Assembly: GCA_030390025.1 (NCBI GenBank)
Contig: CM059431.1
Coordinates: 127,908,001 to 127,972,000 of the forward strand
DNA: 64,000 nucleotides
Origin: Squalus acanthias
Lineage: Eukaryota
Direction of reading: 5' to 3'
Positions 20,606-52,379 of the stretch are shown one piece after another (position 1 is the first letter of the stretch; each line of letters begins with the position of its first letter). The notes below the pieces were generated by a model that was not told where the DNA came from, made no database searches, and worked only from the letters and a program-made list of their open reading frames with translations. The position numbers and the translations under genes were made by a program.

Positions 20606-23320
20606 CCTCTTGTAGCCACAGTATTTATGTGGATGGCCCAGTTAAGTTTCTGGTCAATGGTGACCCCCAGGATGTTGATGGTCGAGGATTTGGTGATGGT
20701 AATGTCGTTGAATGTCAAGGGGCGGAGGTTAGACTCTCGCTTGATGGAGATAGTCATTGCCTGGCACATGTGTGGCGTGAAGGTTACTTGCCACTTATCA
20801 GCCCGAGCCTGAATTTCATCCAGGTCTTGCTGCATTCGGGCATAGACTGCTTCATTATCTGAAGAGTTGTGAATGGAACTGAACACTATGCAATCATCAG
20901 CAAACATCCCCACTTCAGGGAACTACAGGCCAGTTAGCCTGACATCAGTCATCGGGAAAATGCTGGAATCCATTGTTAAGGAAGTGGTATCAGGGCACTT
21001 AGAAAATCACAACATGATTAGGCAGAGTCAACATGGTTTTATGAAAGGGAAATCGTGTTTGACAAATTTATTAGAGTTTTTTGAGGATGTAACTAGCAGG
21101 GTAGATAAAGGGGAAACAGTGGATGTAGTATATTTGGATTTCCAAAAGGCATTCGATAAGGTGCCACATAAAAAGTTATTACACAAGATTAGGGCTCACG
21201 GGGTTGGGGGTAATATAGTAGGACGGATAGAGGATTGGTTAACAAACAGAAAACAGAGAGTAGGGCTAATGGATCTTTTTCAGGTTGGCAGGCTGTAACT
21301 AGTGGGGTGCCGCAAGGATCAGTGCTGGGGCATCAATTATTTACAATCTATATTAATGACCTAGATGAAGGGACCGAGTATAATGTATCCAAGTTTGCTG
21401 ATGATACAAAGCTAGGTGGGACAGTAAGCTGTGAGGAGAACACAAAGAGGCTGCAAAGGGAAATAGATAGACTAAGTGAGTGGGCAGTAAGGTGGCAGAT
21501 GGAGTATAATGTAAAGAAATGTGAGGTAATTCACTTTGGTAGGAAGAATAGAAAAACAGAATATTTTTTAAATGGTGAGAAACTTCAAATGTTGGTGTTC
21601 AGAGAGATTTGGGTGTCCTCGTGCAAGAAACACAGAAAGCTAGCATACAGGTACAGCAAGCAATAAGGAAGGCAAATGGCACGTTGGCCTTTATTGCAAG
21701 GGGGTTTGAGTGTAAGAGTAAGGAAGTCTTGCTACAATTGTACAGGGCCTTGGTGAGACCACACCTGGAGTACTGCGCACAGTTTTGGTCTCCTTATCTA
21801 AGGAAGGATATACTTGCCTTGGAGGCGGTGCAACGAAGGTTCACTAGGTTGATTCCTGGGATGAGAGGGCTGTCCTATGATGAGAGATTGTGTAGAATGG
21901 GCCTATACTCTCTAGAGTTTAGAAGAATGAGAGGTGATCTTATTGAAACATACAAGATTCTGAAGGGGATTGACAGGGTAGATGCTGAGAGGTTGTTTCC
22001 CCTGGTTGGAGTGTCTAGAACTAGGGGGCATAGTCTCAGGATAAGGGGTCGGCCACTTAAGACTGAGATGAGGAGGAATTTCTTCACTCAGAGGGTTGTG
22101 ACTCTTTAGAATTCTCTGCCCCAGAGGGCTGTGCATGCTGAGTCTTTGAGTAGATTCAAGGCTGAGATAGATAGATTTTTGGATTCTAAGGGAATCAAGC
22201 GATATGGAGATCGGGCGGGAAATTGGAGTTGAGGTCGATGATCAGCCATGATCTTATTGAATGGTGGAGCAGGCTTGAGGGGCCGTATGGCCTACTCCTG
22301 CTCTTATTTCTTATGTTCTTATGTTCTGACCTTATGATGAAGGGAAGGTCATTGATGAAGCAGCTGAAGATGGTTGGGCCTAGGACACTGCCGTGAGAAG
22401 CTCTTGCAGCGATGTCCTAGGGCTGAGATGATTGTCCTCCACAACTATAACCATCTTCCTTTGTGCTAGGTATGACTCCAGCCAGTGGAGAATGTTCCCC
22501 CTGATTCCCATTGACTTCAATTTTAATAGGGCTCCTTAATGCAACACTCGGTCAAATGCTGCCTTGATGTCAAGGGCAGTCACTCACACTTTAGCTCTTT
22601 TGGACCAATGTTGTAATAAGGTCTGGAGCCGAGTGGTCTTGGCGGAACCCAAATGGAGCATCAGTGAGCTGGTTATTGGTGAATAAGTGTCGCTTGATAG
22701 CACTGTCAACAACACCTTCCATCACTTCACTAATGATTGAGAGTAGACTGATGGGGCGGTAATTGGCCAGATTGGATTTGTCCTGCTTTTTGTTGACAGG
22801 ACATACCTGGGCAGTTTTCCACATTGTCGGGTAGATTCCAGTGTTGTAGCTGTACTGGAGCAGCTTGGCTAGAACCATGGCTTGTTCTGGAACACAAGAC
22901 TTCAGCACAACAGCCGAGATGTTGTCAGGGCCCATAGCCTTTGCTGTATGCAGTGCGCTCAGCCGTTTCTTGATATTACGTGGAGTGAATCAAAGACTGG
23001 CTTCTGTGATGGTGGGGCCCTCGGGAGGAGGCCATGATGGATCATCTACTCGGCACCTCTGGCTGAAGATGGTTGTATATGCTTCAGCCTTGTATTTTGC
23101 ACTTGCGTGCTGAGCTTCGTCATCATTAAGGATGGGGATGTTCATGGAGCCTCCTCCTCCCGTTAGTTGTTTAGTTGTCCACCACCATTCACAACTGGAC
23201 GTGGCAGGACTGCAGAGCTTGGATCTGATTTGTTGGTTGTGGGTTCGCTTAGCTTTGTCTATAGCATGCTGCTTCTGCTAGTTAGTATGCATGTAGTCCT
23301 GTGTTGCAGTACTATGGCCA
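20606..23320 (-). mobile_element. Non-LTR retrotransposon fragment split by a CR1 insertion (pieces ~20606-20915 and ~22326-23320)
   Basis: MFADDC and NYRPISLLSIIS..FGFRQ motifs on either side; sequence joins across CCCACTTC|TGACCTTATG. Confidence 0.75.
20916..22327 (+). mobile_element. CR1 LINE 3' fragment nested in another LINE
   Basis: [42 protein letters not shown]; (TTCTTATG)n tail. Confidence 0.9.
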
Positions 23321-23322
23321 GT

Positions 23323-24276
23323 ACCTGATGGGCAGTACCCCCTCTCCCTGGCCTCACCTGATGGGCAGAACCCCCTCTCCCCAGCCTCACCTGATGGGCA
23401 GTATCCCCATTCCCCGGCCTCACCTGACGGACTGCACAGCCTCTCCCTGGCCTCACCTGATGGGCAGTACCCCCTCTCCCCGGCCTCATCTGCTGGGCAG
23501 TACCCCCATCCCTGGCCTCACCTTATGGGCAGTACCCCCTCTCCCTGGCCTCACCTGATGAGCAGTACCCCCTCTCCCTGGCCTCACCTGATGAGCAGTA
23601 CCCCCTCTCCCTGGCCTCACCTGATGGGCAGTACCCCCTCTCCCTGGCCTCACCTGATGGGCAGTACCCCCTCTCCCTGGCCTCACCTGATGGGCAGTAC
23701 CCCCTATCCCTGGCCTCACCTGATGGGCAGTACCCCCCTGCCCGGCCTCACCTGACGGGCAGTACCTCCTCTCCCCGTCCTCACCTGATGAGCAGTACCC
23801 CCTCTCCCTGGCCTCACCTGATGGGCAGTACCCCCTCTCCCTGGCCTCACCTGATGGGCAGTACCCCCTCTGCCCAGCCTCACCTGATGGGCAGTACCCC
23901 CTCTCCCCGGCCTCACCTGATGAGCAGTAACCCCTCTCCCCAGCCTCACCTGATGGGTAGTACCCCCTCTCCCTGGCCTCACCTGATGGGCAGTACCCCC
24001 TCTCCCCGGCCTCACCTGATGGGCAGTACCCCCTCTGCCCAGCCTCACCTGACAGGCAGTACCTTCTCCCTGGCCTCACCTGACGGACAGTACCTCCTCT
24101 CCCCAGCCTCACCTGACAGGCAGTACCCCCTCTGCCCGGCCTCACCTGACAGGCAGTACCCCCTCTCCCTGGCCTCACCTGACGGGCAGTACCCCCTCTC
24201 CCCAGTCTCATCTGCTGGGCAGTACCCCCATCCCTGGCCTCACCTGACGGACAGTACCCCCTCTGCCTGGCCTCAC
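23323..24276. repeat. Minisatellite, 33-bp unit CCTCACCTGATGGGCAGTACCCCCTCTCCCTGG
   Basis: About 29 visible tandem copies; explains the MGSTPSPWPHL repeat ORFs. Confidence 0.95.
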
Positions 24277-25438
24277 TGGGTGGATAATATGGCAGCGGGA
24301 ACCATTTGAGACTCATCTTTCTGCAAGTGCGTCCTGGTGTCGAGCAACCAAACCGCCACCGAGACTGCACAACTGCACAAAGGAGATGCTGACTGGCAGT
24401 GGAAACTCATGCGCACACTCCAGCAGCAGCTCGGCAGTGGCCACTGGCTGCCATCTGACTCAGATACAGGTACAGTACTTGGAACATTTTCTGTGACCCA
24501 TATCCCATGTTTTGAGGTGTAAAATACACCAAGTAAATAGGGCCTGGTATATTGAAGGCTGTCTGCAGTTTGTCATTTGCGAGTTTTGTCATTTCAGAGT
24601 GCCTCTTGTATCTTTCACAATGTAAGTTATTTTGAACTGTCATGAAGTGTTCATTTTTTACAGCTGTCCATCGTTTGGTGGTGTCTTTTTCTTCCAGGTT
24701 TCACTGCACATTGTTTGGATATTAATTGATTAATGGATATATACAAACTATCTAATGTATTCAATACATAAGTACTGAATATAAATATCTCATCACCGAT
24801 GTACATGTATTTCTCATGGGATGAAGGATGATTATTTGTTGATAGGAGCTTTCAATTGCAATAATATGAGTTCTGTACATCGGCTTTAACTCGAGTTTTA
24901 TAATACCTCTGATTTAAGAATCAAAGACCTTTAACAACCAGTTCTTAGCAGGTTCCACAAAGAATGATATTTTAATTATAACCTGATTTGCAACTGCTAT
25001 TTCTTGACATTCAGCAATGGGAAAATCGCTTATTAATTCTATAAAATGACCCATAGATGAGGAATAATCATTTTCCTCTATACGTAAAATGAAAATAAAT
25101 TGCTAAATTGTCATTAGTTTATAATGACACTTTGGTTACAAAAATCATTAACTTGACTCTCAAGGAAACAATACATTTTTATCATTGGCATTCTTCGCAT
25201 GAAGCTTTGCACTGGGAGCACTAAAGATGAACATTTATTCTCTTCCCTGTGTGAAAGGAATTACAAAGGAGAATTCAAAAATTTCTCTTTAAAGTTAACT
25301 TTATAGGAATTTAAAAGTGTTTTCAGGATCCTTGCAAGGCATTGTAGTCCCGAAGATTTTAAAATGTAAGATTTAACTGAATTTGATATACGTGCATGTT
25401 GGAATCCAGTAAAATTGTAACATATAACCAAAAGAAAT

Positions 25439-27331: not shown

Positions 27332-28513
27332 GGGCTGATTTTGCCAGGGTTGCAGTTCTTGATTATCTGAAAGGAGAAAGGCACAAGGGTAAGGTTGTGG
27401 TGAGAAGAGCGGGGGAAAGCAAGAGGTGCATGCTTACACCATCTGCAACTTGTAAATCAGAAGAGATTGTGGGATGAGGGGGAAGTGGGATGCGAGAAGA
27501 AGGATTAGATTTGAGAATACTGACATTTTCAATTGATTCAGCCCCACCACTGGCCACGGGCTCAGCAAAGTCCCTCCCAAGAATGGCCAGCACTGTCTCC
27601 TACATCGGGGTAAGGTTATGCAGACGCACCTGTGCTCCTTCATTAGCCGGTGCTGCCTCTGGTTATGTGCCACCTTATCCTGCAAGAAAGAGGGAAGTCT
27701 GTCAGTGAGTGTCATACAATCTGTTTGGGTGATATGCCTGTCTTGGTTGAATAGCTGGTAGTGTGTGCAAGCTGTGAGATGTGGGTGTGAGGCTTGTAGC
27801 AGTGGTAAGTTCGTGAGGGTGAGGCAAAACTATGAATGTGAGGTATGGGTCATGATTGATAGAGCTTGTTGGTAGGTGAGTGAAGGGAGTGTGGTGAATT
27901 GAGCAGTGTGTGAGCCTAGTCGTTCACTTGTAAGGATGAATTCACTGACCTTGATCACGCGAGTGAGGTCATTAAACTTCTTGCGGGAGTTCATACAGGC
28001 CCTCGGAACTACACTGCTGGCATTGACCATGACAGCTATCTGCTCCCATTGCATTTTCCAAATTTGCCTGGAGGGCCTCTTGGCTCCCTACGGATACAGG
28101 ACCTCTCTCCTCCTGTCCATCTCCTGCACCAAGGCCTCCAGTGCTGCATCCGAGATCCTTGAGGGACGCTCTCTCCCCTGTTGTGCCATCGGTACCTCCT
28201 CCTCCCCACACACTGTTCCCTAGCCAGTTGAATCACCTGCTGCAGCCAAAATGCACCTCCCCTTTAAGAGATGCAGACTGCCTTTAAGAAGTACAGGCTA
28301 TATTTAATTGGTGCGAGCCTTGCATGAACTTGGGCCACCTAATGAGCATGCAGCAATTCAGCAGTGCATTCAGCGCTGGGCTGCATGCTATAATCATTCT
28401 AATTAGCAGGCAGCAGAAGTTGGCACGCTACCTGCATCAATTTGAACGGGCGTGGGTTGATCCCGTATTGTGATTCCCAAGCCCGTTTTCAGGGGAAATC
28501 CAATTTTTAGCCC
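27332..28513 (-). mobile_element. Deleted Harbinger derivative with Myb-like remnant
   Basis: WEQIA..VPR..SRKKFNDLTRVIK|VS and QDKVAHN exon remnants; termini GGGCTGATTTTG / CAATTTTTAGCCC. Confidence 0.65.
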
Positions 28514-28690: not shown

Positions 28691-30397
28691 TGTAAGGGAT
28701 TTCCCCTGACCCTGCGTGTCTCGTAGCCTGTGAGATTCACGCGGCTCTGTGCAGCCTGTATGTCAGTGCGGGTCTAGGCCTGGTTGCCTGTTCTGGTCTC
28801 CAGCCAGTCTGGGAACACTAGACACACCTGTGAGTGGTTCGAATCACTCTCCCTTACGGTTCTAGACACTGGACTTAGATGCGAGAGCAGTAATGGAGAT
28901 AAAACTCATGTAGACTTGGTTTGAATGGTACGAAATGGAAAATCTTTATTGCATGATACTTAAAATTATGAAATACATGTCATAAGCACAGATTAATGAC
29001 AGTACAATCTTACAAACGGTTATATAGTCGATCTTAGGGAAACGAGGAACGAACGGCACAACGTAAATAGGGGCACACATTACAAATATCCTTAATCTTT
29101 AAACCCTCCCCTATCAATATCTATCCTAAACTAGCTTCGTAGGATCTCGAGACTCATGCTCACCACTCGTGATAACTCGGAGAAATTCCGAATAGCTGAT
29201 CGGATGTTTTTCACCGCAGCACCCACGTGTCGGTCAGGAGATCTCCTGGTCCCACTTGTTTACTTGCTTCTGCTGCTCCGGCTAGTAGGCTGGACCGTCT
29301 GCTGTGATGAAGACCTCTGTTGGTGGGTTTCACAGTTTAGTCTTGGAGCACCGTTGTCAATATCATTGATACGATGTGTTTTCCACGTTCCAACCTCCTT
29401 AGAAGTTTAAAGAGGAAAACTTCCTGGCGAGAAAACTTGGCTGATCGACCTACAGGCGCGGTCGGGATTTACTGACCGTGGCGATGGATATGGTCTTCTT
29501 CTCTTCTCCTCTCATCTCATCTCATCTCATCTCATCTCGGGCCTTTGGTTCCGCTGCCAGTTACCAACATAGGTCTTCGTTACGCGACACGAGGTAGATC
29601 CGTACGGATCAGAAAGTTCAACAGTCTTTTCAGAAGAGGCAACAGGCACGCAGAAACCCAACTACGAGTACACAGGAGCAGCCACGAGGTTACGAATCGA
29701 CCGGATAAAACACAGGAGCAAGCGAGCGAACGCAGGAGCACGAACAAGAGCACGAGGCCAGAGGCAAGAGACAAGAGAGCGAGTGGACGGTTTGGGGCCT
29801 GCAATTATAGTGCAAAAATCTTCCGTTTCCCGCCCAACTATAATGTCCATTCTTTTGTTTAGGGTTTGGCGCCCAAATGTCTTGTATGGGTGATCTCCGT
29901 CCTTAATGGGTTTCGGGGCTACTCATGAATGTTTGAGTACCTGTTAATATTTCTCCCATTGTTAAATCGGTCGGTGTTCTCCCTGGAGGGGTTTGGGGCT
30001 TCCAAGTGTCCTGTATACGGCTCTCTCATCGTAGAGTCGTTGGGAGTTTACATATTAATGTCCTTTGGATGGGCCCTTGATTACTCGGTACAATGGCTTT
30101 CCTTTGTACCTGGGAGACCGATTCCAGTATCTATGTTTATACTGCAAACCCATAATGTCTCGTGTATTATCTTCACTGTGCTGAATCGTTATCGATCTTG
30201 CACAAATGTTTAATGGAACGCCATCTTGTCTGCCTGTTGAAAAGTCTAGAATGTTCTGTCACGAGGTGCGGCGGCCATTTTACAGGCTGCTTGTGTCCAA
30301 TTTAAACCTGCCAGCATTCTGCTGAAATAAAAGCTGTTTGAACGAACCTTTGTGTTTTCTCCTTATTAATCAAATCGCGATAATTGCGAATTCTACA
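28691..30397 (-). repeat. 3' LTR
   Basis: Direct repeat of 36443-38161 (offset 7752 up to the indel); AATAAA on minus strand at 28945-28950; lacks a 12-bp segment present in the 5' LTR. Confidence 0.97.
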
Positions 30398-30410
30398 GTC
30401 CCTCCTGTTG
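30398..30410 (-). promoter_or_regulatory. Polypurine tract
   Basis: Minus strand reads AACAGGAGGGAC immediately before TGTAG of the 3' LTR. Confidence 0.7.
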
Positions 30411-30823: not shown

Positions 30824-33175
30824 TTACACGGTGCTCTCATCGTGCACGCGCACGTAACGTTCTCGCCACTCTCCCGTGTTTTCATGCTTGGTGAGGCGCT
30901 TGTCTCTTTTACAATGTATGACCAATAGGTACACTACAATAAACACTTGACAGACGACTAAAATGTGGGAGGCTATTCTGATCCATGAAGGCACTTCAAT
31001 ATTGGTGAACAGATTCCACCACGGTGGAACCACTATGTCCAAAATGTCTGTTCCTATCTCGACAGTTTTCTGCTCTAATGTATAAAAATGTTTCTGTGAT
31101 ACCGCGACGGCTTTCAGAAGTTTGGTTAAATGCTCAGGGAGAGGGGGAATGAGGTATCCAAAATGCGCGACAAATCGCTGCAAGTCGGTGAAATTCTCTT
31201 TTACTGTGAGGTGAACAGTGGATGGTTCAGGGATTGGGATGATTCGCTGTTGTGCTACTTGAACTTCAGCCCTGGGTTTAAAACAGAAACTGCTGTCACT
31301 CACCGGACACCGGCTACGGTTTCCATGCTGGTAGTGTTGCGCTGCAGTGGTAACACAATATGTTCCACCCCCGATGTATGCTACCTGCGGAGGCACATGA
31401 TCTTGTGCCATTGCCTCCATGGTGCAATTCATGGACTTGGCGCCAGCCGTTCTGAACCCGCACTGTGGTGTTAAAAAGGCATTCAAGTGCTGGGGGCACA
31501 GTATTATGTGTGCTCCCCTGCCACGACAACCAGAGAGATCTGTACCTGTCATCGTTTGCTCCCAGCGGATGACGTAAGGTGGAACCGCTGCATAACGAAT
31601 GTGGGCTCCCCCCTGAATGACACCAATGTTCTCTACCCGATACACCGGGGCGGGCTTTGCTGTGTTGCCCAAAACCGGCATGCGTAATACTATTCCCATA
31701 ATAGTATGGTTTGAACGTCCGCAGTCCACGGGGACTGGGTAAGCTTCTGAAGCTAGCCTGAGCTGGCACGGACTTAATGCGTTCTGAAAAGGGTGGAGCG
31801 CCCGTAGGTGTTTGTTACTTATCCAGGACGGAACCAAACCTTGTTTTAAATCCTCCAAATTACTGCGGCCCTCGCCCAGTAACCACGCCCCGTAAAGCAC
31901 GCACACCTCGTTCTGCGCAGCTTGATCGGATGCATTCCGATCTTCCCTGATCAGGGCATTTACCGTACGCGCATGTTTCTCCAGCTCTGCTATAATTTCC
32001 TTTAAATGGAGAGTCATGGCTTGGTCCTCGTGTAGACCTGACCCTACCACTTTATTCTCATCTGTTAGAATGTCTTTTAACTGTGTTTTTAAACCATTAA
32101 TCTGGGTCTGCAGCTCCACACTGTCTAGAGCGTTGACCACAGATGTCCCTGTGTTAAACGCAGTGAACGCATCGTTCACCAAACCCCTTCTTTGCCTCCC
32201 TACTTGATCCAAAACTTCCTGCGGTGCGGTGTACAAGCTTGTCTTATCAATTTCTGCAAAATCAAACTCGTAAAATTGTCTGAACATCTTGGTCAACAGG
32301 ACCTGATACAACTGTTCCGTCTTTTTGGGGCACCACTCTGGTAACCGTACCTCAGTGAGATTTAAAATCACCGAGGCCACCGCGTAATGTACCCCCTGAA
32401 ATAGTATCTGGTCTGTGGGGACCAGTACCAAACCGTTTCCGGGTCCCTTACTAGTTTTAGGGCACCCTTCTTCCTCAGCTAGAACCACCGGAATCGTGGG
32501 CGGGGCTTTGCGTGGGCGCGTAATGAGTTCAGTGGCATTTACTGGGATCGGGGAGAATGGGGCTCCGCACCCCCTGGTGCTCGCATCCCACCTCATCCCC
32601 TGTCCGTTATCCTGCCACTGATTAATAAAAAATATGGAGATGCCTTTGGGGCAAACGTACTTTGACCCCCACATACATACATAAATCCCCTCATCCGGTT
32701 CCCACCATTTGTCCCAACAGACTTTCACTTGTCCGTCTGTCCCCGTAATTGTCCGATGGGTATTATTACCCAGTCGTTCCCACTCGACCGAAGAGTTTCT
32801 CATAGTTTTGCTCAGCTTTCGCAGCTACCACCATCGGCTCAATGGGACATCCCCACTACAGGTCAAACAAATCCGTTTGCCGACGGTGACGCTGATCCTG
32901 GGTGCGATGATCCTTACTTTGGGGCACATTAAAGAAGTCTCTTTGTAGGCGAACCCCGATGTGCTGGAATACTCCGTTGAGTTCGTTCCCAGCCATCCTG
33001 GCCACCTTCCCTTGTGGAAATAGGTGCTGGTCCCCTCTGCCTTCCGTCTTCCGGTCCCATCCACCGCGATGGGGGCCGTGTCCCCGGAACATCCAAACAC
33101 CACGACATCCTTGGTGTGGCCTCGATAGGCCAATCCACATCCGATTGCCACGAGCAATACTAGAATTCGTTCCAT
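30824..33175 (-). CDS. env: Envelope glycoprotein, 783 codons with one in-frame TAG (32827-32825): signal peptide, Ig-like domain, class I F-like fusogen, TM
   Basis: MERILVLLVAIGCGLA signal peptide in AGGATGG context; ORFs 32825-33358 and 30824-32803 are the same frame; furin site RQRR (32197-32186) then GLVNDAFTAFNTGTSVVNAL, heptad repeat, Cys-rich region and TM IASHILVVCQVFIVVYLLVI. Confidence 0.88.
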
Positions 33176-33438: not shown

Positions 33439-34626
33439 TTAAATTCTGAGAAGGCTGCTGCGAGCTCTTCCCGACGGTGGGAGGGCACTGACCCTTCCCT
33501 CTGATCTGCCGCAGCCTGTTGCTGCGCTGACCCTTTCCTCTGATCTGCCGCAGCCTGTTGCTGCGCTGACCCTTTCCTCTGATCTGCCGCAGCCTGTTAC
33601 TGCTGCGATGTGGCCGGTCTGTACCCGGGTTATCTTAACCTGAAGTCTACGCCTTGGGGCAGTCTGGGGACATGACCACATCCTCCTGGGCTGGGGTTCT
33701 CTACTTGACCTACGGGGAGTTGCTATGGGCGGGGGTTCCGTGACGGACGGACCGGGTTCCGAGACCTCCAACGGGATGACCTGGGGTTCCATCACAGTCG
33801 CCGGCTCCGCCTCCGCTGACTCCGCCTCCCTAACCTCGGGGCTGGCAGTTCGTGGCTCCGCCCTGCTCGGCCCAGCAGGCGGCCCTTCACTCGTGATCTC
33901 TGCCTCCCCTGAGGACTGGACGTTCAAAGCGGGCGGCCACATCTCTGGGAGCCACACCGGTACTCTCTGTGCTCCTATAGCGGCTGGCCCTGCCTCCTCT
34001 AGCTCCTCCCTCCTGTCCTCGGGACCTGCAGCTTGCGTGTCCACCCTGTGTGGATCTCTACCTACAGCCCCCATTCCCTCCAGACCGTTCCTCAGGAACC
34101 ACCCGTCATCATCACTATGCTCATCTGCACTATCCTCATCTGACCAGGGTACCCTGAGTTCTTCCTCATCTAACCCCCAATTCCAGAAAAACGCTGCATG
34201 ATCGTCCGGGATGTCCCTTCCCCTGATACAAGCTGCTATGCCTGCCTGTGTGCCTTGTGGTCCTACCTGGGGCTGTGCTTTCCCATTGGCGGGATTTACC
34301 CCTGTAGTTTTCCCCTGCGCACCCGGCTGGTACAGTCTGCATTGGTTTACATCCTCATACTCCCGGCTTTTGGCTGCCCTGTAGGCTGCTTTTATCTCTC
34401 TAAGCTGCGCTTCTAGCCTGAGCACGTCTAACTTTCCCATTGCTCGGGCGTTCTCCTCCCGCAGGGCCTGCTCTCTAAGCTGCCCTTCCAGCCCATCTAT
34501 TTTCCCTATTAAGCGGGCGTTCTCCTCCCGCAAGGCCTGCTCTCTTAACCTGGCCTCCTCTCCGCAGACCCCCTCCTGTGCGTGTCTTTTAAAAGGACAC
34601 AGGTAGGCAGGCTGCGTGGGCTCTAG
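33439..34626 (-). CDS. Gag-readthrough extension (395 aa), unknown coiled-coil plus acidic/Pro-rich protein in the position normally held by pol
   Basis: Open in the gag frame from the codon after the gag TGA (CTA GAG CCC ACG..; LEPTQPAYLCPFKRHAQEGVCGEEARLREQALREENAR..) to TAA at 33441-33439; no ATG before the Met in RAMGK. Confidence 0.75.
   Translation of the reverse strand, partial: LEPTQPAYLCPFKRHAQEGVCGEEARLREQALREENARLIGKIDGLEGQLREQALREENARAMGKLDVLRLEAQLREIKAAYRAAKSREYEDVNQCRLYQPGAQGKTTGVNPANGKAQPQVGPQGTQAGIAACIRGRDIPDDHAAFFWNWGLDEEELRVPWSDEDSADEHSDDDGWFLRNGLEGMGAVGRDPHRVDTQAAGPEDRREELEEAGPAAIGAQRVPVWLPEMWPPALNVQSSGEAEITSEGPPAGPSRAEPRTASPEVREAESAEAEPATVMEPQVIPLEVSEPGPSVTEPPPIATPRRSSREPQPRRMWSCPQTAPRRRLQVKITRVQTGHIAAVTGCGRSEERVSAATGCGRSEERVSAATGCGRSEGRVSALPPSGRARSSLLRI
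33488..33604. repeat. 39-bp coding tandem repeat (3 copies; AATGCGRSEERVS)
   Basis: CTGACCCTTTCCTCTGATCTGCCGCAGCCTGTTGCTGCG x3, frame-preserving. Confidence 0.9.
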
Positions 34627-36438
34627 TCATTGGGTACTATTAGACGGTCCTGCGGCACCTACGGGGCCGGTTGCGACCGCCACCTGTCCACGCGCATTCA
34701 AGACCAGCTTGCGCATGGCTCCTAACACTGCTTCGAGGTCGTCGGGAGGGGTGGGTGCCTTGGCTTCCTTAGCCGGGACCGGCGCCTGGGCTCGCACCGC
34801 GGGATTTTTATCCTTGGAATCCTTCCAAGGGTTCCTGCAATGCTTGCGCCAGTGCCCTGTCTTCCCACACCCGTAACAAGCATTACTTGCCTGTGGGGCG
34901 CGATTTCCCTCCTGATGCCACTCCTTTTGAGCCGGGGCTGCGGGTCGTACCTCATGTACTCTTCCCTTAAAGGGACGTGTCGTCATACCCCTTATATTAC
35001 GATAACCTAACGTGAGTCGATTCAAGACCGACTCTTCCGTAAGGTTGAGGTCATTGGGATCGAACCAGGCTTTTGCCTGCTCTCTAACGGCTGGTAAACT
35101 GTTGGCTATTATGCACCTAAGCCAATGAATTAAAGCGGCGCCTTCCACATCTTCGCGCTCGGGCGCACCTAGACAGCTGCGCTCATATACTGGCCACAGC
35201 CTGTCGGCAAAAACCTTCGGGGGTTCTCCCTCCATCTGCACTGTCTGTCCCACTCTAGCAAACGGACCTCCGTCGTTCGCCCCCACTACTTCTAGGACCT
35301 CATTCTTTAATTCCTCATAACTCTTGTTTCCCCTCTTGCTCTCGCCTGAGAGACACTGAAGGACCGAGCTGTCTAATGAGAACAGCAGCATTTTTGCTGT
35401 CTCCCCATCATCGCAGCCGTTAATGGCTGCGGCTTGCTCAACTTCTCTGAAATGTACGGAAGGGTCGTCTATCTCGGTCAGCTTCCGTACGTGATTTATC
35501 ATAGCTCTCAGCTGATGTGAACTGTGAGGCAACACCAGCTGTCCGAGGAGATCCCCCGGTTCTTCCCCACCGTTTCTGCTTGGGCCCCTTTTAATACCCG
35601 TTACTGGATACAACGATCCCTTTTCTTCTTCCTTTTCAATGGGCTTTTTCGTTTCTTCCATTGCTTCCTCCCTAACCCAGGTTTCTGAATAGCTGGGTGG
35701 CGCGGAGGGCGCAGTGGCTACTACTTCTTCTGCTTTACTTGGTGGGGATTTTCTAAATCTCTCATTTACTAGCGGCTGGTGCGCCGACGGATTGATAAGG
35801 CACACCATGCCGTTCGCATTATTCACGGCCTTTTTGAGGCTCTCTATCTCCCTTTGGCAGGCGCTATGGTCGGCTCCCTGAAACTTATCCTCAAGGGCCA
35901 ACTTATACGCCGACCTAACCCCCATTAAGCTCTCTTCTTGAGTTCTTATCTGGGCAGCTTGGCGGTTGCATCTTTCCTTTAACCTACTCTCATTCAATTT
36001 TGCTTCAGTGACCTGGCACTCGAGATACTCTATCCTTGTTTTAAGGTGACTGGAGACTTCCTGGCTTTCCTGGTGTAACTCATTTAAATTCTTAATGAGC
36101 ACCTCCCCTCCAGAAACCTTCTCCTCCATTTCTCCCTCTAAATGGCTGATTCGAGCTGTTAGCGCTGTAATGGTCTGGTTTGAAATCTGAACCTGCCTTT
36201 TGTAGCACATAAGCCAGACTGCTTTCTCAACTGCCTTTTTATGTTCCTTACTATCTGTCCACCTTTCAGCTGCCTCTAGTGGGCTCTTATCCGCTAACAA
36301 TTCACTTATCCACTTCTTAGTTAGATTAACCTTTCCAAACACATAATCCGCTATCTTTTCCTGCATAACATTTCGTACAGTCATTCCAAAATCTAACACA
36401 CTACCCTCTCGCTGCCAGTGTCCTGCCGCGGTCGCCAT
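34627..36438 (-). CDS. gag: Gag polyprotein, 603 aa
   Basis: Starts AAAATGG (MATAAGHW); long N-terminal coiled coil, PSAPPSY late motifs (35709-35689), MHR-like QMEGEPPKVFADRL, zinc knuckle CYGCGKTGHWRKHC (34878-34837). Confidence 0.92.
   Translation of the reverse strand: MATAAGHWQREGSVLDFGMTVRNVMQEKIADYVFGKVNLTKKWISELLADKSPLEAAERWTDSKEHKKAVEKAVWLMCYKRQVQISNQTITALTARISHLEGEMEEKVSGGEVLIKNLNELHQESQEVSSHLKTRIEYLECQVTEAKLNESRLKERCNRQAAQIRTQEESLMGVRSAYKLALEDKFQGADHSACQREIESLKKAVNNANGMVCLINPSAHQPLVNERFRKSPPSKAEEVVATAPSAPPSYSETWVREEAMEETKKPIEKEEEKGSLYPVTGIKRGPSRNGGEEPGDLLGQLVLPHSSHQLRAMINHVRKLTEIDDPSVHFREVEQAAAINGCDDGETAKMLLFSLDSSVLQCLSGESKRGNKSYEELKNEVLEVVGANDGGPFARVGQTVQMEGEPPKVFADRLWPVYERSCLGAPEREDVEGAALIHWLRCIIANSLPAVREQAKAWFDPNDLNLTEESVLNRLTLGYRNIRGMTTRPFKGRVHEVRPAAPAQKEWHQEGNRAPQASNACYGCGKTGHWRKHCRNPWKDSKDKNPAVRAQAPVPAKEAKAPTPPDDLEAVLGAMRKLVLNARGQVAVATGPVGAAGPSNSTQ
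36420..36437 (-). promoter_or_regulatory. Primer-binding site, tRNA-Arg(UCG)-type
   Basis: TGGCGACCGCGGCAGGAC lies 5 nt after the 5' LTR and is complementary to GTCCTGCCGCGGTCG-CCA, which I recall as the 3' end of a vertebrate tRNA-Arg(TCG). Confidence 0.85.
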
Positions 36439-36442
36439 TTTC

Positions 36443-38161
36443 TGTAAGGGATTTCCCCTGACCCTGCGTGTCTCGTAGCCTGTGAGATTCACGCGGCTCT
36501 GTGCAGCCTGTATGTCAGTGCGGGTCTAGGCCTGGTTGCCTGTTCTGGTCTCCAGCCAGTCTGGGAACACTAGACACACCTGTGAGTGGTTCGAATCACT
36601 CTCCCTTACGGTTCTAGACACTGGACTTAGATGCGAGAGCAGTAATGGAGATAAAACTCATGTAGACTTGGTTTGAATGGTACGAAATGGAAAATCTTTA
36701 TTGCATGATACTTAAAATTATGAAATACATGTCATAAGCACAGATTAATGACAGTACAATCTTACAAACGGTTATATAGTCGATCTTAGGGAAACGAGGA
36801 ACGAACGGCACAACGTAAATAGGGGCACACATTACAAATATCCTTAATCTTTAAACCCTCCCCTATCAATATCTATCCTAAACTAGCTTCGTAGGATCTC
36901 GAGACTCATGCTCACCACTCGTGATAACTCGGAGAAATTCCGAATAGCTGATCGGATGTTTTTCACCGCAGCACCCACGTGTCGGTCAGGAGATCTCCTG
37001 GTCCCACTTGTTTACTTGCTTCTGCTGCTCCGGCTAGTAGGCTGGACCGTCTGCTGTGATGAAGACCTCTGTTGGTGGGTTTCACAGTTTAGTCTTGGAG
37101 CACCGTTGTCAATATCATTGATACGATGTGTTTTCCACGTTCCAACCTCCTTAGAAGTTTAAAGAGGAAAACTTCCTGGCGAGAAAACTTGGCTGATCGA
37201 CCTACAGGCGCGGTCGGGATTTACTGACCGTGGCGATGGATATGGTCTTCTTCTCTTCTCCTCTCATCTCATCTCATCTCATCTCATCTCGGGCCTTTGG
37301 TTCCGCTGCCAGTTACCAACATAGGTCTTCGTTACGCGACACGAGGTAGATCCGTACGGATCAGAAAGTTCAACAGTCTTTTCAGAAGAGGCAACAGGCA
37401 CGCAGAAACCCAACTACGAGTACACAGGAGCAGCCACGAGGTTACGAATCGACCGGATAAAACACAGGAGCAAGCGAGCGAACGCAGGAGCACGAACAAG
37501 AGCACGAGGCCAGAGGCAAGAGACAAGAGAGCGAGTGGACGGTTTGGGGCCTGCAATTATAGTGCAAAAATCTTCCGTTTCCCGCCCAACTATAATGTCC
37601 ATTCTTTTGTTTAGGGTTTGGCGCCCAAATGTCTTGTATGGGTGATCTCCGTCCTTAATGGGTTTCGGGGCTACTCATGAATGTTTGAGTACCTGTTAAT
37701 ATTTCTCCCATTGTTAAATCGGTCGGTGTTCTCCCTGGAGGGGTTTGGGGCTTCCAAGTGTCCTGTATAACTACCTGCTAACGGCTCTCTCATCGTAGAG
37801 TCGTTGGGAGTTTACATATTAATGTCCTTTGGATGGGCCCTTGATTACTCGGTACAATGGCTTTCCTTTGTACCTGGGAGACCGATTCCAGTATCTATGT
37901 TTATACTGCAAACCCATAATGTCTCGTGTATTATCTTCACTGTGCTGAATCGTTATCGATCTTGCACAAATGTTTAATGGAACGCCATCTTGTCTGCCTG
38001 TTGAAAAGTCTAGAATGTTCTGTCACGAGGTGCGGCGGCCATTTTACAGGCTGCTTGTGTCCAATTTAAACCTGCCAGCATTCTGCTGAAATAAAAGCTG
38101 TTTGAACGAACCTTTGTGTTTTCTCCTTATTAATCAAATCGCGATAATTGCGAATTCTACA
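36443..38161 (-). repeat. 5' LTR
   Basis: Minus strand TGTAGAATTC...CCCTTACA; copy of 28691-30397 plus 12 bp near 37769-37780; (TCTCA)n microsatellite inside. Confidence 0.97.
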
Positions 38162-38399
38162 GTAGGGAGTTCCAGGATTTTGACCCAGCGAGTGGCGATG
38201 AACTGGAATTTGCTGCCGATGGAAGTGGTGGAAGCGGAGACAGTTTTCAAAGGGAGACTGGATAGGCACTTGAAGGAAATCAACTTGCTGGGCTACGGGG
38301 ATAGAGCGGGGGAATGGGACTGACTGGATTGCTCTACCGAGAGCCGGCATGGACCCGATGGGCCGAACGGCCCCTTCTGTGCCGTTTTGACTCTATGAC

Positions 38400-41300
38400 A
38401 CGGGAGAGAACATGCTCCAGGTTTTTGAGACGCTGCACTGGAGGTCTTGGTGGAGGAGGTGGCTAGTAGGAGAGATGTCCTGTACCGCAGGGGGCCAGGA
38501 GGCCCTCCAGACACATGCTCAGAAGGCAGTGGGAACAGAAAGCCGTGGAGGTCAATGCCAGGAATCTAACCACGAGGACCTGGATGCAGTGCCGCAAGAA
38601 GTTCAATGAACTCTCACGGGTGGTCAAGGTCCATGAATGCATCTTCATCAACTGCATCACTAGTCTCAGCCACTGCTCAATTCACCACACTCCCTTCACT
38701 CACCTACGAACAATCTCTATCAATCAGATCTCATACCTAACATTCATAACTTCACCTCACCCTCACACATGTAGCACTGCTGCAAGCCTCACACCCACAT
38801 TTCACAGCCTGCACACACTGCCAGCTATTCCACCATGACAACCACATCACCCAAACAGGTTGTACGACACTCACTGACAAAGTTCCTTCTCCCTTGCAGG
38901 ACAAGGTGGCGCACAACCTGAGGCAGCAGGGGCTACCCATAGGGAGACCGGCACACCTGCATGTCCTAACCCCCATGGAGGAGATGATGCTGGCCTTTAT
39001 TGGAATGGCAATTGCTGAGGCTGTGGCCAGCAGCTGGGCTGAATCAATTGAAGATGCCGGTATCCTCATACCTAATCCTCCTTCTCACATCCCACTTCCT
39101 CCTCATTCCACAATCAATTCTGAGGGGGCTTGATCGGGTGGATGCGGGGAGGATGTTTCCACTGATGGGTGAGACTAGAACTAGGGGGCATAATCTTAGA
39201 ATAAGGGGCTGCCGTTTCAAAACTGAGATGAGGAGAAACTTCTTCACTCAGAGGGTAGTAAATCTATGGAATTTGCTACCTCAGAGAGCTGTGGAAGCTG
39301 CGACATTAAATAAATTTAAAACGGAGATAGACAGTTTCCTAGCTGATAAGGGAATTAAGGGTTATGGGGAGCGGGCAGGGAAGTGGACGTGAGTCTAGGT
39401 TCGGATCACCCATGATCCTATTGAATGGCGGAGCAGGCCCGAGGGGCCATATGGCCCACTCCTGCTCCTACTTCTTATGTTCTTATGTTATGTTCAAGCT
39501 GCAGATGGTGTAAGCATGCACCTCTTACTCTCCCCTCACCACAGCCTTACCCTTGTGCCTTTCTCCTTTCAGATACCCAAGAAGTGCTTCGTGGCAATGG
39601 AACAAGAAAACAATGATGATGACGACACGCTGTCAGTCGATTTCACACACGCAGCCACCAGCTCAGATACTGACACTGCGTGTAATTTAGAGGATAGTAT
39701 AGAGGCAGGATCTGCACATAGTGAGACACCGGGCACGAGTGGCCTACAGCCAGGGCAGGGGCCACGGATAGCGCAGGTGCCAGTTCGCACACGTGAGGTC
39801 GCACATGGGTTCCGCTACAGTGGTCTCAGATGAGAACTTCAATGGGGCTGCCTGCAGAAGAAGGCAGATGGGTATGCACAACAAAATGCTTGGTGCATTG
39901 GGAGGCCTGCCAGAAAGCCTTCGTTCAATGTCAAGGATCATGATGGAGTCCAGCACCAACTTGGCACAGGGCTTTGCGAAGAGCTTGGAGCCCATCGTTA
40001 CCAGCGTGGAAGTAGTGGTCCACTCCATTCGCACACTTGTGGAGCCAACCATGATGTAACGTCTGATGGCCAATGTCTCAGCTTCCATTGCAACACAAGC
40101 AGCAGCCAGCCATCATCTGGGTACTGCAGTGAAAGCTTAGACTGCTGTCATGCAGGGTCAGCTTGCTGCCATGCAAGTCCAGACTGCTACCATCATGGCT
40201 GTATTCAAAGGGACTTGCAGGGTGACATAGCAGTCCAGCAATCTGTCCTCCAATAGATTACTAGGATTGCTGAGGCACTACCCCGGGGGAGTGACAATGG
40301 CTCCATGGCGCACGAACCTGAGGTCCTCTCTCAGGAAGGCAGCATTCGTCCTCCCACTCCTGCCACTCCCCCAGTGCCCTTGCTGTAGCCTGTCAGCCAG
40401 TCATCCCAGATTGCTGCCGCCTATGCCGAGATGGTGCAGTCCGCAGCCGAGCCGTCCAGGCCCAGAGCTGCTCGAGGTCGTCCTCCAAGTCCATCTGCCG
40501 TCTCCCCCAGTGAAAGTCAGTGGCCTGCTACCAGCCATGCTGTAGCCACTGGGGTAGCACTGCGTAGGAACATTAGGACAGGCAAAGTCACATGGAAGAC
40601 AGGCACTAAGGGGATGCACAAGGTTGATTAGTTGACGTTTGTATGCAATATTGCATGGTTTCACTTATAATTTTGGGTTGGACTGTTTATTTTGTGTTGG
40701 CTTTTATTTTTGCATTGTGGCCAAGCGGATGCTGTGATGGTCAGTGACAGAGGGACGGTAAGGAGTGTGGGACTGTTGGTGAAAGAGGAATTGGGGTTGC
40801 AGTTACCAATATCGCACTCAAATTAGTTTTTCACAGACAGCCCGGCCAGAAAGGGGCTGTCTTGCTTGCCTCCTCTCTTCCTCTTCCTCCTCTTCCTCCT
40901 GATGCTTCTGCTCCTCAGTTGATTACAGCATAGCTGTTGGGAAGGGCTGTCCACTTATGATGGCGAGGTTGTACAGCATGCAGCAGACCACCACGAATCT
41001 TGACACCCACTGTGCCGAGTACTGAAGGGTTCCTCCAGGCAGCGGAAGTGTTGTTTCAGCATGCCAATGGTCTCCTCTATCACATTTCGTGTGGCAGCAT
41101 GGCACTCATTGTATGCATGTTGTGCACGTGTGCCATGTCCTTAGCGGAGAGTCCTTGTCGTCCAGTAGCCACCTTTGCTTTGCCATAGTGGCTCAAATGC
41201 AGCCTGCACAGTGGACTGCCGCAGAATGAAGACATCATGACTGCTGCCAGGATACCAGGCATTGATATGCATGATTCACTGCCTTTGGTTGCACACCAGC

Positions 41301-46736: not shown

Positions 46737-49062
46737 GGCCCCAATATTTACTCAGAGACACATTGGGAACGGGGGAGGGGCGGTCAGATATCGTGTGGGA
46801 AACCCGCAATAAGTTCAGCACATCTGTCTGTGACTTTTTAACTCAGCCATGCATTAGCATTTTACTAAATAACAACAGAAAACGCTGGTAAAACTCAGCA
46901 GGCGAGGCAGCATCCGTGGAGAGAGAAACAGAGTATTTTAGCATTTTACTTCCGGGTTTGCCGTTCAATCAGCAGCAGCGGGCATGATAAGGACGCGCAT
47001 GAAGCAATCTCAATTCCAATATATAAAGGGCCAATCCAAAGATGCAATTTGGAGGAGTTGGGAGATTTGGAACAGAGACAGCAATCATAGATGATGAAAT
47101 CAGGACTCTCAAAGGCTGCGCCCTGCTTTAACGATGCCTCACTTGATGTGCTGCTGGGGGCTGTGAGGAGCTTCAGAGAGATACTTTACCCAAGCAATGG
47201 GAGGAAGAAACCTGCTGTTGTCACAAAGAAGGTGTGGTTGGAGGTGTCCCAGGAGGTGAGCAGCAGGAGCGTTGTGCCATGCTCCTGGATTCAGTGCAGG
47301 AAATGCTTCAATGACCTAACCAGGTCAGGAAAGGTGAGTATGAAGGGATTATTACTAGTCCTAGCCCCTTTAGGGCTACCCTGGATCAGGCGTATTCCCC
47401 AAACGTTCACTTTCAACTAAAGTTTGAGGTAGCTGAATCCTAAAGACGCTTAATTGGGTCTAAAGGTCTGGACCATCTCTCCCTAAAGGAAAGGAACAAC
47501 CTGAAAATGTTACTGTCCTCCAGATAGCACTTTTAATAAGTTTAGCTAGACTGTAACGGATATTATGAGGGGCCAGAAAACTCCCCCAGAATTCTGCAAC
47601 TCCTCACCAAAGAGTATACAGAAATTGAGTTTGCGTGTTTGATACAGAAGTATTATGTGAGACAATTCTAAAAATATATAGATTTATTAAAGAACCGACA
47701 TGTAATTTACAGTTGGTGAGTCAATCGCAACATTAACACTTCCTAAAAGAGAAAGCTTTACAATTCTATTATCAGAGATCCTTATTCTCAAATCTTAACT
47801 TCGCTATAGTTTTACAGTTCTTAGTCTTATTCAGGATATCCACCAAAGTCAAATACAGTACCTTGATCCCCGAGATACAAAGAGTTGTAGACTTACAGAG
47901 CCACCTCTGAAGCCTGAGAATCGCTTTGACCCTTTACAGCAATCTATTATCCCATTTGAGAGTTCAATATTTATACCCTTTTCCAGTGATATCTCCTTTA
48001 AGGTTGTCTGCTGATGTAAGCTAATTATCTCTAGTCATTTTTCTGCTGACCCCTGCAATTCTTAGTCACCTCAGCTGGTAGCAATACAGACTCGTGTCTC
48101 CTCTAGGTGTTCCAAGCTTACCATAAAAAATGGTGTAACAGCAGGTGCATTTTATTTGATGACATTTTTACTAAGGCCTTCTGTTTGTTTCTCTTTACGA
48201 AGTGTAAATTAGAATACCTTAACCAGGGTGATCTTTTGTTTTGTTCCGAAAGGTTCAGACTGTCAGGAGCCTTTAACCTTCTATTTCAATAAGGTTATTG
48301 ATTCAGTGTCAACAACTATCTTATCTCTATTGCCAGAATGCTACTACAGCTTTTTCAGTTAGGTTTCCAGATTTCCAGACCCAGTTTGTCATGTTTTAAT
48401 AAGGCCAGAATTCTTTCATAGAATGGTGTATTTTTCTGAATAGGTTTTATGGCTTATTCCTTCACAAGTACAGTTGCATATTCACCTATGACCTGCTGTG
48501 TGCATCATCCCAGCCTCTCACTCTGCCTTTTCAAGACTACCCCATCATATCACTCCATCACATCACTCTTCACACCCACTTACCTTGCACGCCCACCCAT
48601 CCTTCTCTTTCTATGCACTCAGTCACATCCCCATCTATCCATCCACCACTCCCACTCACCCTCATCCTTATGCAATTTGATGCCTCTCCCTGACAGTCAC
48701 CCTCACCAAATGCACTGCATCCATCGGGTGAACACATGCTATTACACTCGTTCATAAGTCTGTTCTTTCCCTCATTGCCGGAGAAGAGAGCACATAAAAA
48801 GAGGGAGAGGGAGAGAACTGAAGGTGGGCCTCCATGAAATCCCAGTTAACAAATGCAGAGGAGGAGGCGCTGGAGATCAGTGGAGTTTTGGTGTCCCTGG
48901 CCATCGGAGATGGGGAGATGGGTGCTCCCAGCTACCTGGTGACACAATTATATTTTAGCGACCCACATGCCATATGGTACTCAGTCATGTTGACTTGATT
49001 CCAACAGCGAGTGAAATATGATCATCTTCATAATGCGAAGTTGCAACTTCTTACCTTGCCAA
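46737..49062 (+). mobile_element. Harbinger left arm with Myb-like pseudogene, interrupted by a solo LTR and truncated at the minisatellite
   Basis: AAPCFNDASLDVLLGAV..WLEVSQ..WIQCRKCFNDLTRSGK|GTGAGT; colinear with the copy at 58961-60050. Confidence 0.75.
47341..48466 (-). mobile_element. Solo LTR (1126 bp)
   Basis: TG..CA ends, 4-bp TSD AGTA (47337-47340, 48467-48470); empty site AGGTGAGTACAGT seen in the paralogue at ~59461; TATAAA (47975-47970) and AATAAA (47688-47683) on minus strand. Confidence 0.85.
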
Positions 49063-49069
49063 GGGGGAG

Positions 49070-51900: not shown

Positions 51901-52379
51901 GGGAGATTGGAGTGTGGTTGGCGAGAGATCGGAGCGTGAATCAATGGGAGGAGATCTGAGCGTGGGTTGTGAGGGTGATCTGAGCATGCGGATAAATGCA
52001 GGTTAGCTTAATCTGCCATGGGAAAGCACTCCTGTTCCTCCTGGCCCACAAGCAGTGCTGGAAAGGCACTTGCCTGCTGGATCTGGCCTTTCTCGCCTCC
52101 CTCCAGCTGCTGGGTTTTCTGAGCCCTGGGAAACCTGGCTCACAGCATTAAATGTAAAACTCTGGTAAAATTTGAACCACGCAGCCTCATCAAAATATTT
52201 AAATAACTGACCCACCTCTCGCCCCCCCAACCCGTTAAAACCAGATGTGGGCAAGTTGGAGGTGGGTTTGGGTCAGGTTTCAGATTTCAGAAATTTTACA
52301 CCTCTCCCGTCCGTCGTGTAAGGTTAAAATGCTGTGTGTTTCCAGCCTTTTCTGTTTTTATGAAGGAGTTATGAATGGT

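Follow-up and report, generated by a model that had tools for sequence, protein, structure and literature searches.

In a 64,000-nucleotide stretch of the Squalus acanthias genome (assembly GCA_030390025.1, contig CM059431.1, positions 127,908,001 to 127,972,000; the whole stretch is called the window below) we analyzed the envelope gene, env, of an endogenous retrovirus (ERV). We think it likely that this is the env of a recently active elasmobranch ERV, encoding an F-type fusion machine (residues ~236-755) behind a front extension of ~215 residues with a probable immunoglobulin (Ig)-type core. The precursor would then be a type I membrane glycoprotein of two units, the F-type machine and the extension. 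The F proteins of paramyxoviruses, pneumoviruses and baculoviruses have no such front extension; F-like retroviral Envs are already known from lokiretroviruses and foamy viruses, but the added front module is new. The env frame comprises 783 codons and, in the window copy, has a single internal stop, a TAG at codon 117.

To model the whole Env with AlphaFold we placed an X at the stop codon and used a 36-row alignment. The mean predicted local distance difference test score (pLDDT) was 62; taken in blocks of ten residues, it was 83-95 across residues 241-310 and 64-95 across residues 431-650, with at least 83 in 17 of the latter 22 blocks. Foldseek found 238 matches to this model in the PDB at E≤0.001, the best being F of human parainfluenza virus 3 (3.6e-11), and among the matches listed all were paramyxovirus or pneumovirus F proteins. 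The predicted viral structures of BFVD gave 58 matches at E≤0.001, which take in glycoproteins of arliviruses, lispiviruses and chuviruses, baculovirus F (2.7e-11), paramyxovirus F0 (1.1e-10) and, among retroviral Envs, those of walleye epidermal hyperplasia virus 1 (WEHV-1; 2.1e-11) and walleye dermal sarcoma virus (WDSV; 1.2e-10) and feline foamy virus gp130 (7.1e-5). In the model, the three-domain ectodomain superposes on solved F structures from the start of F2 to heptad repeat B (HRB). The alignments begin at model residue 243-245; the facing F residue lies in the range 23-38 in 49 of the 50 rows, the exception being F residue 130 as that entry is numbered.

A comparison of ESM features, independent of the structural model, placed residues 236-725 nearest to Baculo_F (0.92, 195 shared features), followed by Fusion_gly PF00523 (0.91, 198 shared) and Baculo_F/Gypsy (0.90), and the ten best family-bearing matches all fall in one clan. 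The parts of an F protein can also be recognized along the chain. A C-P..G-P..G-L-V motif at the start of F2 is conserved in the family alignment, as are Cys238 and Cys282 on the F2 side; the ectodomain has no R-x-K/R-R site other than RQRR (327-330); and a best heptad phase over residues 345-445, in the region of heptad repeat A (HRA), makes a/d positions 62% hydrophobic, compared with 89% in HRB. The head contains nine cysteines (470, 485, 550, 560, 572, 584, 607, 623 and 631), with pLDDT of 64-95 in blocks of ten across 471-650 and at least 83 in 14 of 18 blocks. The 19-residue windows of highest hydrophobicity in the frame begin at 728-739, in keeping with the C-terminal transmembrane segment proposed in an earlier, sequence-only reading of this gene. 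The frame also has 10 N-x-S/T sites. A motif scan found CX6CC nowhere in the env frame, and a gamma-type retroviral Env is thereby ruled out. That sequence-only reading had argued for an F-type rather than a gamma-type protein from the strings GPGNGLVLVP (243-252), RQRR|GLVN (327-334) and DLSGC..ILCP..CG..CT (546-585), all of which are present, and the argument is borne out: the post-cleavage subunit and the ~95 residues before the cleavage site match paramyxovirus and pneumovirus F in the fold search, the ESM comparison agrees, and CX6CC is lacking.

Several results from sequence searches weigh against this assignment. The only Pfam family reached by the window Env at E≤1 is DUF6360 (E 0.032), and PF00523 and PF12259 are absent among the 25 of 41 Pfam families that are listed for 36 members. 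A single member, P0040, matches Baculo_F, and does so below the cut-off (E 0.0011; 18.1 bits where 24.1 are required). With a family profile against PDB sequences, F0 reached just E 0.26 and the HR2/anchor region of a coronavirus spike E 0.0046, and the putative fusion peptide is only mildly hydrophobic. The same profile matched foamy virus gp130 (8rm1_D) at E 0.0027 over the Cys-rich head. Phmmer with the single Env found nothing meaningful among PDB sequences (best E 1.9). Pfam detected no family in the frames neighboring env in the window. Weighing these together with the structural matches, we conclude with high confidence that the Env core has the F-type fold, yet lies outside the Pfam F families.

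Paramyxovirus and pneumovirus F proteins (PF00523) have the same order of parts as the family Env from F2 to the anchor, with a furin-type site directly before the fusion peptide, and have HRA, HRB and a disulfide-rich head in common with it. Identity in the structural alignments is 6-17%, with no PF00523 sequence match, and the family Env differs in its ~215 extra residues before F2 and its less hydrophobic fusion peptide. It is encoded by a retrovirus and therefore has no separate attachment protein gene at hand. The G-L-x-N...G...D pattern after its cleavage site resembles baculovirus F. Baculovirus F (PF12259) and the ENV of errantiviruses and Gypsy form the top ESM cluster and match in BFVD at 2.7e-11 to 1.6e-10; the present family differs from them in its vertebrate host and in a pol with the retrovirus-type dual RNase H. 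Errantivirus and Gypsy ENVs are F-type envelopes borne by invertebrate retroelements, and the study describing them reports that it identified no intact ERVs homologous to invertebrate elements in vertebrate genomes (PMC13524379).

The envelope could be an ordinary one, simply that of a lokiretrovirus, a foamy-like virus or an epsilonretrovirus, with nothing new in its architecture. We regard this as doubtful, though serious enough to be weighed group by group. Lokiretrovirus Env is reported to resemble PF00523 (E 2.2e-7; Wang and Han, 2020, PMC7947760), and an F-like Env in this group is likewise reported in PMC9040795. It shares with the family Env a layout of signal peptide, R-x-K-R site, fusion peptide, coiled coil and anchor (PMC7947760), and a similar (E)PGP..G(I/L)V motif stands at the start of F2 (PMC7947760 supplement). 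The printed lokiretrovirus Envs, however, run from signal peptide straight to F2 without an N-terminal module, and their fusion peptide is different and more hydrophobic (PMC7947760). They also reach PF00523 by sequence, which the family Env does not. The available lokiretrovirus supplement contains neither of two 8-residue motifs taken from P0066, the Xenopus relative, and in the available part of the lokiretrovirus screen the row for Chondrichthyes (Orectolobiformes) has none of three genomes positive (PMC7947760).

Comparison with foamy viruses draws on both env and pol, the latter being carried by full-length copies of the element in the same genome. Foamy gp130 is the best sequence-profile match of the family Env in the PDB, besides the BFVD match to the feline virus. 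A dual RNase H of the retroviral type is present in pol, whose nearest solved relatives are Ty3 (7e-55, mostly integrase), the reverse transcriptase (RT) of murine leukemia virus (MLV) and xenotropic MLV-related virus (XMRV; 1.5e-51) and the integrase of prototype foamy virus (PFV; 8e-34); no other retroviral integrase in the PDB comes as close. The family RT is nearer to that of MLV than to foamy protease-RT (2.5e-31). Foamy viruses differ from the family in having a long leader peptide on Env, in place of the classical short signal peptide seen here, and the CCHC knuckle of the family Gag and the in-frame stop with read-through into pol are likewise unlike foamy viruses. Among named public proteins, the nearest to the family pol are 'NYNRIN-like' and 'Gypsy integrase-like' models from frogs (39-41% identity), coelacanth (40%) and birds (32-36%); these nearest models lack the MLV-type integrase C-terminal domain, which occurs only in remoter matches at 29-43% identity. 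A structural link between foamy virus Env and F has been described (Fernandez et al., 2024, PMC11468914), and in this respect favors an ordinary foamy-like Env.

The epsilonretrovirus Envs (WDSV A4GTG3 and WEHV-1 Q9WHI8) match by predicted structure, as BFVD entries, and are 1159-1317 residues long, against 783 in the family Env. An in-frame stop between gag and pol is also found in WDSV. None of the 23 phmmer matches to the family Env whose source we looked up is an epsilonretrovirus Env, and none bears any virus name. Chondrichthyan ERVs have been placed near snakehead retrovirus (SnRV) and epsilonretroviruses (PMC4422223), which speaks for an ordinary epsilonretroviral origin. The exogenous epsilonretroviruses have been described as carrying 'a distinct Env' (PMC9967133), modeling of the epsilonretrovirus surface subunit (SU) was reported as unsuccessful (bioRxiv 10.1101/2021.11.05.467493), and our literature search found no statement of an F-like epsilonretrovirus Env. 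That their predicted structures match as well suggests that F-type fusogens are widespread in deep-branching retroviruses.

What sets the envelope apart from F proteins and from the printed lokiretrovirus Envs is its front. Residues 20-235, some 215 residues between signal peptide and F2, have no counterpart in F, since the F alignments start only at model residue 243-245; the extra N-terminal part ahead of a complete F ectodomain, as the sequence-only reading had it, is thus real. That reading had further recognized an Ig-like domain in ISVTVGKRICLTC with Cys106 (32860-32858), in WW-stop-LRK and in DEGIYVC (residues 161-167, window 32695-32675). All of these strings are present; Cys106 and Cys167 lie 61 positions apart, although the residues between them number 60 and not 61 as had been stated. 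D-x-G-x-Y-x-C is the F-strand signature of Ig V-set and I-set domains. The Cys-Trp-Cys triad, the 61-position spacing and this motif are shared with the V/I-set domains of CRTAM (IgV), JAML, VEGFR and antibody light-chain variable (VL) chains, and the Cys106, Trp115/116 and DEGIYVC pattern is retained in the 3 close relatives aligned over the whole module.

Profile searches against 177,635 distinct PDB sequences point to the Ig superfamily. An eight-sequence profile of residues ~85-190 had JAML as its best match (E 1.1e-5), with 5 chains at E≤0.001; all 60 chains among the matches listed were of the Ig superfamily, and antibody VL domains aligned over positions 10-107. A profile of four close relatives matched CRTAM IgV (E 0.0051) almost end to end (profile positions 8-98 of 105, chain positions 7-96 of 101), with both cysteines and the DxGxYxC motif in register, and 9 of its 12 matches were Ig-superfamily chains. 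Pfam detected Ig_3 in 6 of the 8 profile members (best E 0.0012) and V-set (0.0014) and I-set (0.018) in one each. ESM features of residues 84-192 had similarities of 0.89-0.91 to ig, V-set and I-set clusters, nine of the ten best belonging to one clan. Aligned by hhalign to nine V-set exons from the host genome, the eight-row profile gave a probability of 65% (E 5.9e-5) over 80 columns, from B-strand Cys to F-strand Cys. The stretch is all-beta in both models that we built, with 6 strands in the whole-protein model and 7 in a model of the N-terminal part, within residues 87-169.

A different body of evidence counts against an Ig domain. All Pfam Ig matches lie under the curated cut-off, and the family's own copy scores only 16.3 bits against Ig_3 (E 0.014, cut-off 30). 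The wider profile is biased because its distant rows (shark, frog and others) were picked for their Ig-like look; against I-set exons of host titin it gave a probability of 19%. The profile of close relatives failed with hhalign against both the host V-set exons (1.3%, 17 columns) and the titin I-set exons (4.7%, 9 columns). In the whole-protein model, pLDDT over the Ig-like stretch is 39-66. When residues 1-205 of a natural open copy were modeled separately with AlphaFold, from 12 aligned rows, the mean pLDDT was 41.5 and Foldseek gave no match at E≤0.001, with a few antibody V domains at E 0.8-1.3 that are not usable. The stretch is thus modeled as all-beta, at low confidence.

These results can be read as a lineage-specific beta-rich SU domain without Ig kinship, in which the Cys..Trp..DxGxYxC pattern arose by chance or convergence; the F core would stand unchanged. 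The sub-threshold Pfam matches, the failure of the close-relative profile against host exons and the low-confidence model without a fold match fit this account, as do extra cysteines (103, 153 and 175) and Trp-rich strands, the C strand among them, that are unusual for Ig domains. Set against it are three separate sequence-based methods that give the Ig superfamily as main matches, and domain-length profile alignments such as that to CRTAM IgV. We consider a non-Ig domain unlikely. The core of the extension (~85-190) is most likely an Ig-superfamily-type beta-sandwich, and we hold an Ig-type fold of these residues to be probable. The Ig domain of the sequence-only reading thus has moderate support, from profiles and ESM features, but none from Pfam thresholds or from the closest relatives compared with host V-set and I-set exons.

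The sole CXXC of the env frame, CLTC (residues 103-106, window 32858-32869), lies on the predicted B strand of the module. A C-x-x-C is kept in elasmobranch relatives, including those with a different N-terminal module (CFTC, CVQC and CLFC). Ahead of the module, a GRWPGWLGSNST.YSS motif is kept in elasmobranch relatives, with G63, N65, S66, S70, S71 and Y77 invariant, and the Met preceding the hydrophobic N-terminal stretch is aligned in the 3 relatives examined at this column (P0004, P0017 and P0037).

The distribution of front modules bears on their origin. A phmmer search over 1.84 billion representatives found 49 proteins at E≤0.001, and E was 1e-30 or lower for 16 of these. Of the 23 that we looked up, those with a named source come from elasmobranchs of eight genera (Rhinoraja, Pristiophorus, Mustelus, Chiloscyllium, Rhincodon, Heptranchias, Heterodontus and Scyliorhinus), from coelacanth and from the frogs Xenopus tropicalis, Pelodytes and Mantella; a profile search of a word-indexed protein collection added no named virus, its matches being limited to 11 close relatives. 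The front module is common to relatives in skate (Rhinoraja), sawshark (Pristiophorus) and whale shark (Rhincodon) at 45-72% identity. In distant full-length relatives, the part that can be aligned to the query begins only at residue ~221-237. Stretches with Ig-like motifs occur at the same place in P0013 from Chiloscyllium, whose source label is 'Ig-like domain-containing protein', in P0019 and P0047 from the frogs Pelodytes and Mantella, and in P0034; the identity at which such shark and frog modules compare is 13-23%. A Mustelus/Pristiophorus group instead has a different Cys-rich module at the front, which hhalign matched to the close-relative Ig profile over just 15 columns around the CxxC (probability 1.2%), and in P0038, as in the Latimeria protein P0048, the signal peptide leads straight to the C-P..G-P..G motif without a module. 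A survey of related Envs, as the sequence-only reading had suggested, thus finds Ig-like modules in some relatives, from sharks and frogs, a different module in others and none in P0038 and P0048.

That reading had called the Ig domain captured, perhaps for receptor binding or immune mimicry. In its strongest form this would make the module an immune-receptor exon taken from the host in recent times, serving mimicry or as a decoy and not entry. The motif pattern is indeed that of cellular V/I-set domains, and the host genome is rich in V-set sequence, with 150 scored exon matches. Yet none of the 49 phmmer matches is a cellular protein that could be the donor, the close-relative profile has next to no probability against host V-set exons, the module is shared by the Rhinoraja, Pristiophorus and Rhincodon relatives, and the Chiloscyllium, Pelodytes and Mantella relatives have Ig-like modules in the corresponding position. 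It is unlikely that the module was captured recently for immune mimicry, and as an account of the module as a whole we give this very little weight. The capture, if there was one, was old or repeated, because the module is found in skate, sawshark and whale shark and comparable ones in frogs.

Some gene models fuse Env fragments to host parts (P0003, P0004, P0011, P0040 and P0016), these being Niban 1-like, a ZFP2-like zinc finger, cadherin, F-box and a repeat protein. They are probably annotation artefacts, or possibly exonised ERV fragments. For annotation the point is practical, as public gene models here join Env fragments to Niban-like, zinc-finger, cadherin and F-box host genes.

Copies of the element in the same genome indicate recent activity. 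The 666 residues that follow the stop, searched in six frames against the 3.7-Gb genome, gave 12,646 first-look candidates, of which 67 places were scored; all 67 are near-identical and free of internal stops, and 63 have an open frame of at least 788 codons, room for the whole env. Eleven other copies were fetched with their flanks, and 10 have uninterrupted 783-residue frames at 99.7% identity (the other is split). The stop at codon 117 is private to the window copy, since 10 of the 11 sampled copies read through it, and the column holds a sense residue in all 5 relatives that cover it. The window copy is therefore dead for env, by one stop, and has lost pol, while the family is mostly open; the ERV family is young and abundant in the elasmobranch genome. 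That the env frame is a co-opted host gene of the syncytin kind, as many open copies and the entry of relatives as host proteins in public annotations might suggest, is extremely improbable and at the window locus ruled out: this copy has an internal stop and is bounded by long terminal repeats (LTRs) of 99.3% identity and by a target duplication, and the very numerous, near-identical open copies fit recent insertion rather than long-term selection.

Copies are often paired, 7.6-7.8 kb apart in a pol-deleted form and 10.6-11.2 kb apart in the full-length form (for example C16:35643190/35650938 and C9:53443198/53454357), which suggests tandem arrays with a shared LTR. No RNA data set is indexed as containing the env stretch, and one RNA run, labeled as another organism and hence no guide to expression here, gave 0 reads. 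Three contig sets that contain the element in pieces, and whose RNA origin is a guess, show no leader-to-env splice joint.

How an envelope with an F-type machine and an Ig-like front might work can be outlined from its fold and from established F-protein behavior. The Env would trimerize, and furin cleavage would yield an SU-like subunit (extension and F2) and a subunit resembling the retroviral transmembrane subunit (F1-like), which may be joined by disulfides as in F. In paramyxoviruses, attachment and fusion are split over two proteins; here the N-terminal module would bind a cell-surface molecule in cis, replacing the separate attachment protein. HRA would then extend and the fusion peptide insert, and HRB would pack back to form a six-helix bundle.

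We tentatively suggest, as an idea on which we would not insist, that a retroviral lineage of cartilaginous fishes, coelacanth and frogs, active until very recently or still active in this genome, made the F-type fusogen a self-contained entry protein by inserting a cell-type Ig-superfamily domain between signal peptide and F2, and that this insert is an exchangeable cassette. If so, receptor use would be switched by swapping the front module (Ig-like, other Cys-rich or none) with the F core constant, no F-type fusion protein before the family Env would have had an Ig-superfamily attachment domain built in, and the envelopes of lokiretroviruses, foamy viruses and epsilonretroviruses would be linked in one F-derived super-family. 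The words 'immunoglobulin' and 'Ig-like' are absent from the available text of PMC7947760, PMC9040795 and PMC13524379, and full-text literature searches, subscription papers and bioRxiv supplements aside, listed no paper that describes an Ig-like module on an F-type retroviral Env.

F-like retroviral envelopes have so far been recognized in lokiretroviruses, by sequence, and in foamy viruses, by structure. The present family is a third case, and it sits in the Chondrichthyes, the very row that is negative in the available lokiretrovirus screen (PMC7947760). Its predicted front module would place attachment and fusion on one F chain, a point relevant to the ways in which entry proteins gain receptors. 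Since the family is young and abundant and most of its frames are open, natural sequences exist for direct tests of cleavage, fusion and binding.

Features of the provirus and of its env frame (positions in the window; residues are those of the Env translation)
Feature	Position	Strand	Basis or remark
5' LTR	36443..38163	-	TG..CA; 4-bp target duplication CTAC on both flanks of the provirus
gag-like frame	34627..36438	-	coiled coil, one CCHC knuckle; terminal stop in frame with pol
pol remnant (395-aa frame)	33439..34626	-	first protease-frame residues, 245-bp stretch, post-integrase tail
env reading frame	30824..33175	-	783 codons and terminal stop; one internal stop in window copy
Putative signal peptide, residues 1-~19 (MERILVLLVAIGCGLAYRG)	33119..33175	-	hydrophobic N-terminus; model helix 5-19
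Pre-Ig region, residues 20-84	32924..33118	-	pLDDT <40 in models
Ig-superfamily-like module (probable), residues 85-190	32606..32923	-	Cys106, Trp115/116, D-E-G-I-Y-V-C 161-167; sequence profiles
In-frame stop, codon 117	32825..32827	-	within predicted C strand of Ig-like module
Pro-rich linker, residues 191-235	32471..32605	-	pLDDT 29-38
F2-like segment, residues 236-330	32186..32470	-	begins at conserved C-P..G-P..G-L-V motif; F alignments
Putative furin-type cleavage site RQRR, residues 327-330	32186..32197	-	basic site at same column in relatives
Putative fusion peptide, residues 331-~355 (GLVNDAFTAFNTGTSVVNALDSVEL)	32111..32185	-	directly after cleavage site; function inferred
HRA / long central helix, residues ~356-444	31844..32110	-	model helices 333-376 and 383-444
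Beta-rich Cys-containing head, residues ~470-650	31226..31768	-	equivalent of F domains I and II
HRB, residues 682-711	31043..31132	-	model helix 682-711
Transmembrane anchor, residues ~733-755	30911..30979	-	hydrophobicity maximum; model helix 730-765
Short cytoplasmic tail, residues 756-783 (28 residues)	30827..30910	-	read from sequence
3' LTR (TG..CA)	28691..30399	-	preceded by purine tract AGGAGGGAC

The provirus has Retroviridae-type features: TG..CA LTRs, whose identity was taken over 1721 columns, a target duplication, gag and env, with pol in two copies elsewhere in the same genome (L013 and L014). Its inter-LTR span of ~6 kb holds the gag-like frame, an in-phase frame after the gag stop, and env. 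At window position 34595/34349 both L013 and L014 have 3.6 kb more (4646-8265 in L013, 1537-5156 in L014), which makes the window copy a pol-deleted form; in L013 the extra stretch encodes protease, RT, a tether-type RNase H-like domain, RNase H and integrase. The deleted form has in turn 245 bp (34350-34594) that are absent from the full-length copies and encode a coiled-coil-like stretch. Both forms are numerous: the deletion-specific stretch is found at no fewer than 40 places at ≥98% identity (of 1348 first-look candidates) and the pol stretch at a minimum of 40 places at ~100% identity (of 1774). The pol-deleted form was presumably mobilised in trans.

Five bases past the 5' LTR lies a primer-binding-like sequence starting with TGG, and the first ATG of the gag-like frame overlaps it (window 36420-36438). 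In the minus-strand pol tail, a 39-bp tandem repeat (window 33485-33603) encodes GCGRSEERVSAAT-like units; the unit number varies between copies, as it is present three times in the window copy and once in L013. Inverted-repeat arms flank the provirus (window 27352-28181 and 38398-39587; 730 bp at 79.5% and ~100 bp at 85%); its insertion target was probably a palindromic element or transposon of greater age. Elsewhere the window has satellite-like arrays at 23240-24295 and 48992-49900, with periods of 33 nt and 24 nt, and a region at 50000-52000 of 61% G+C with a GC skew of 0.66.

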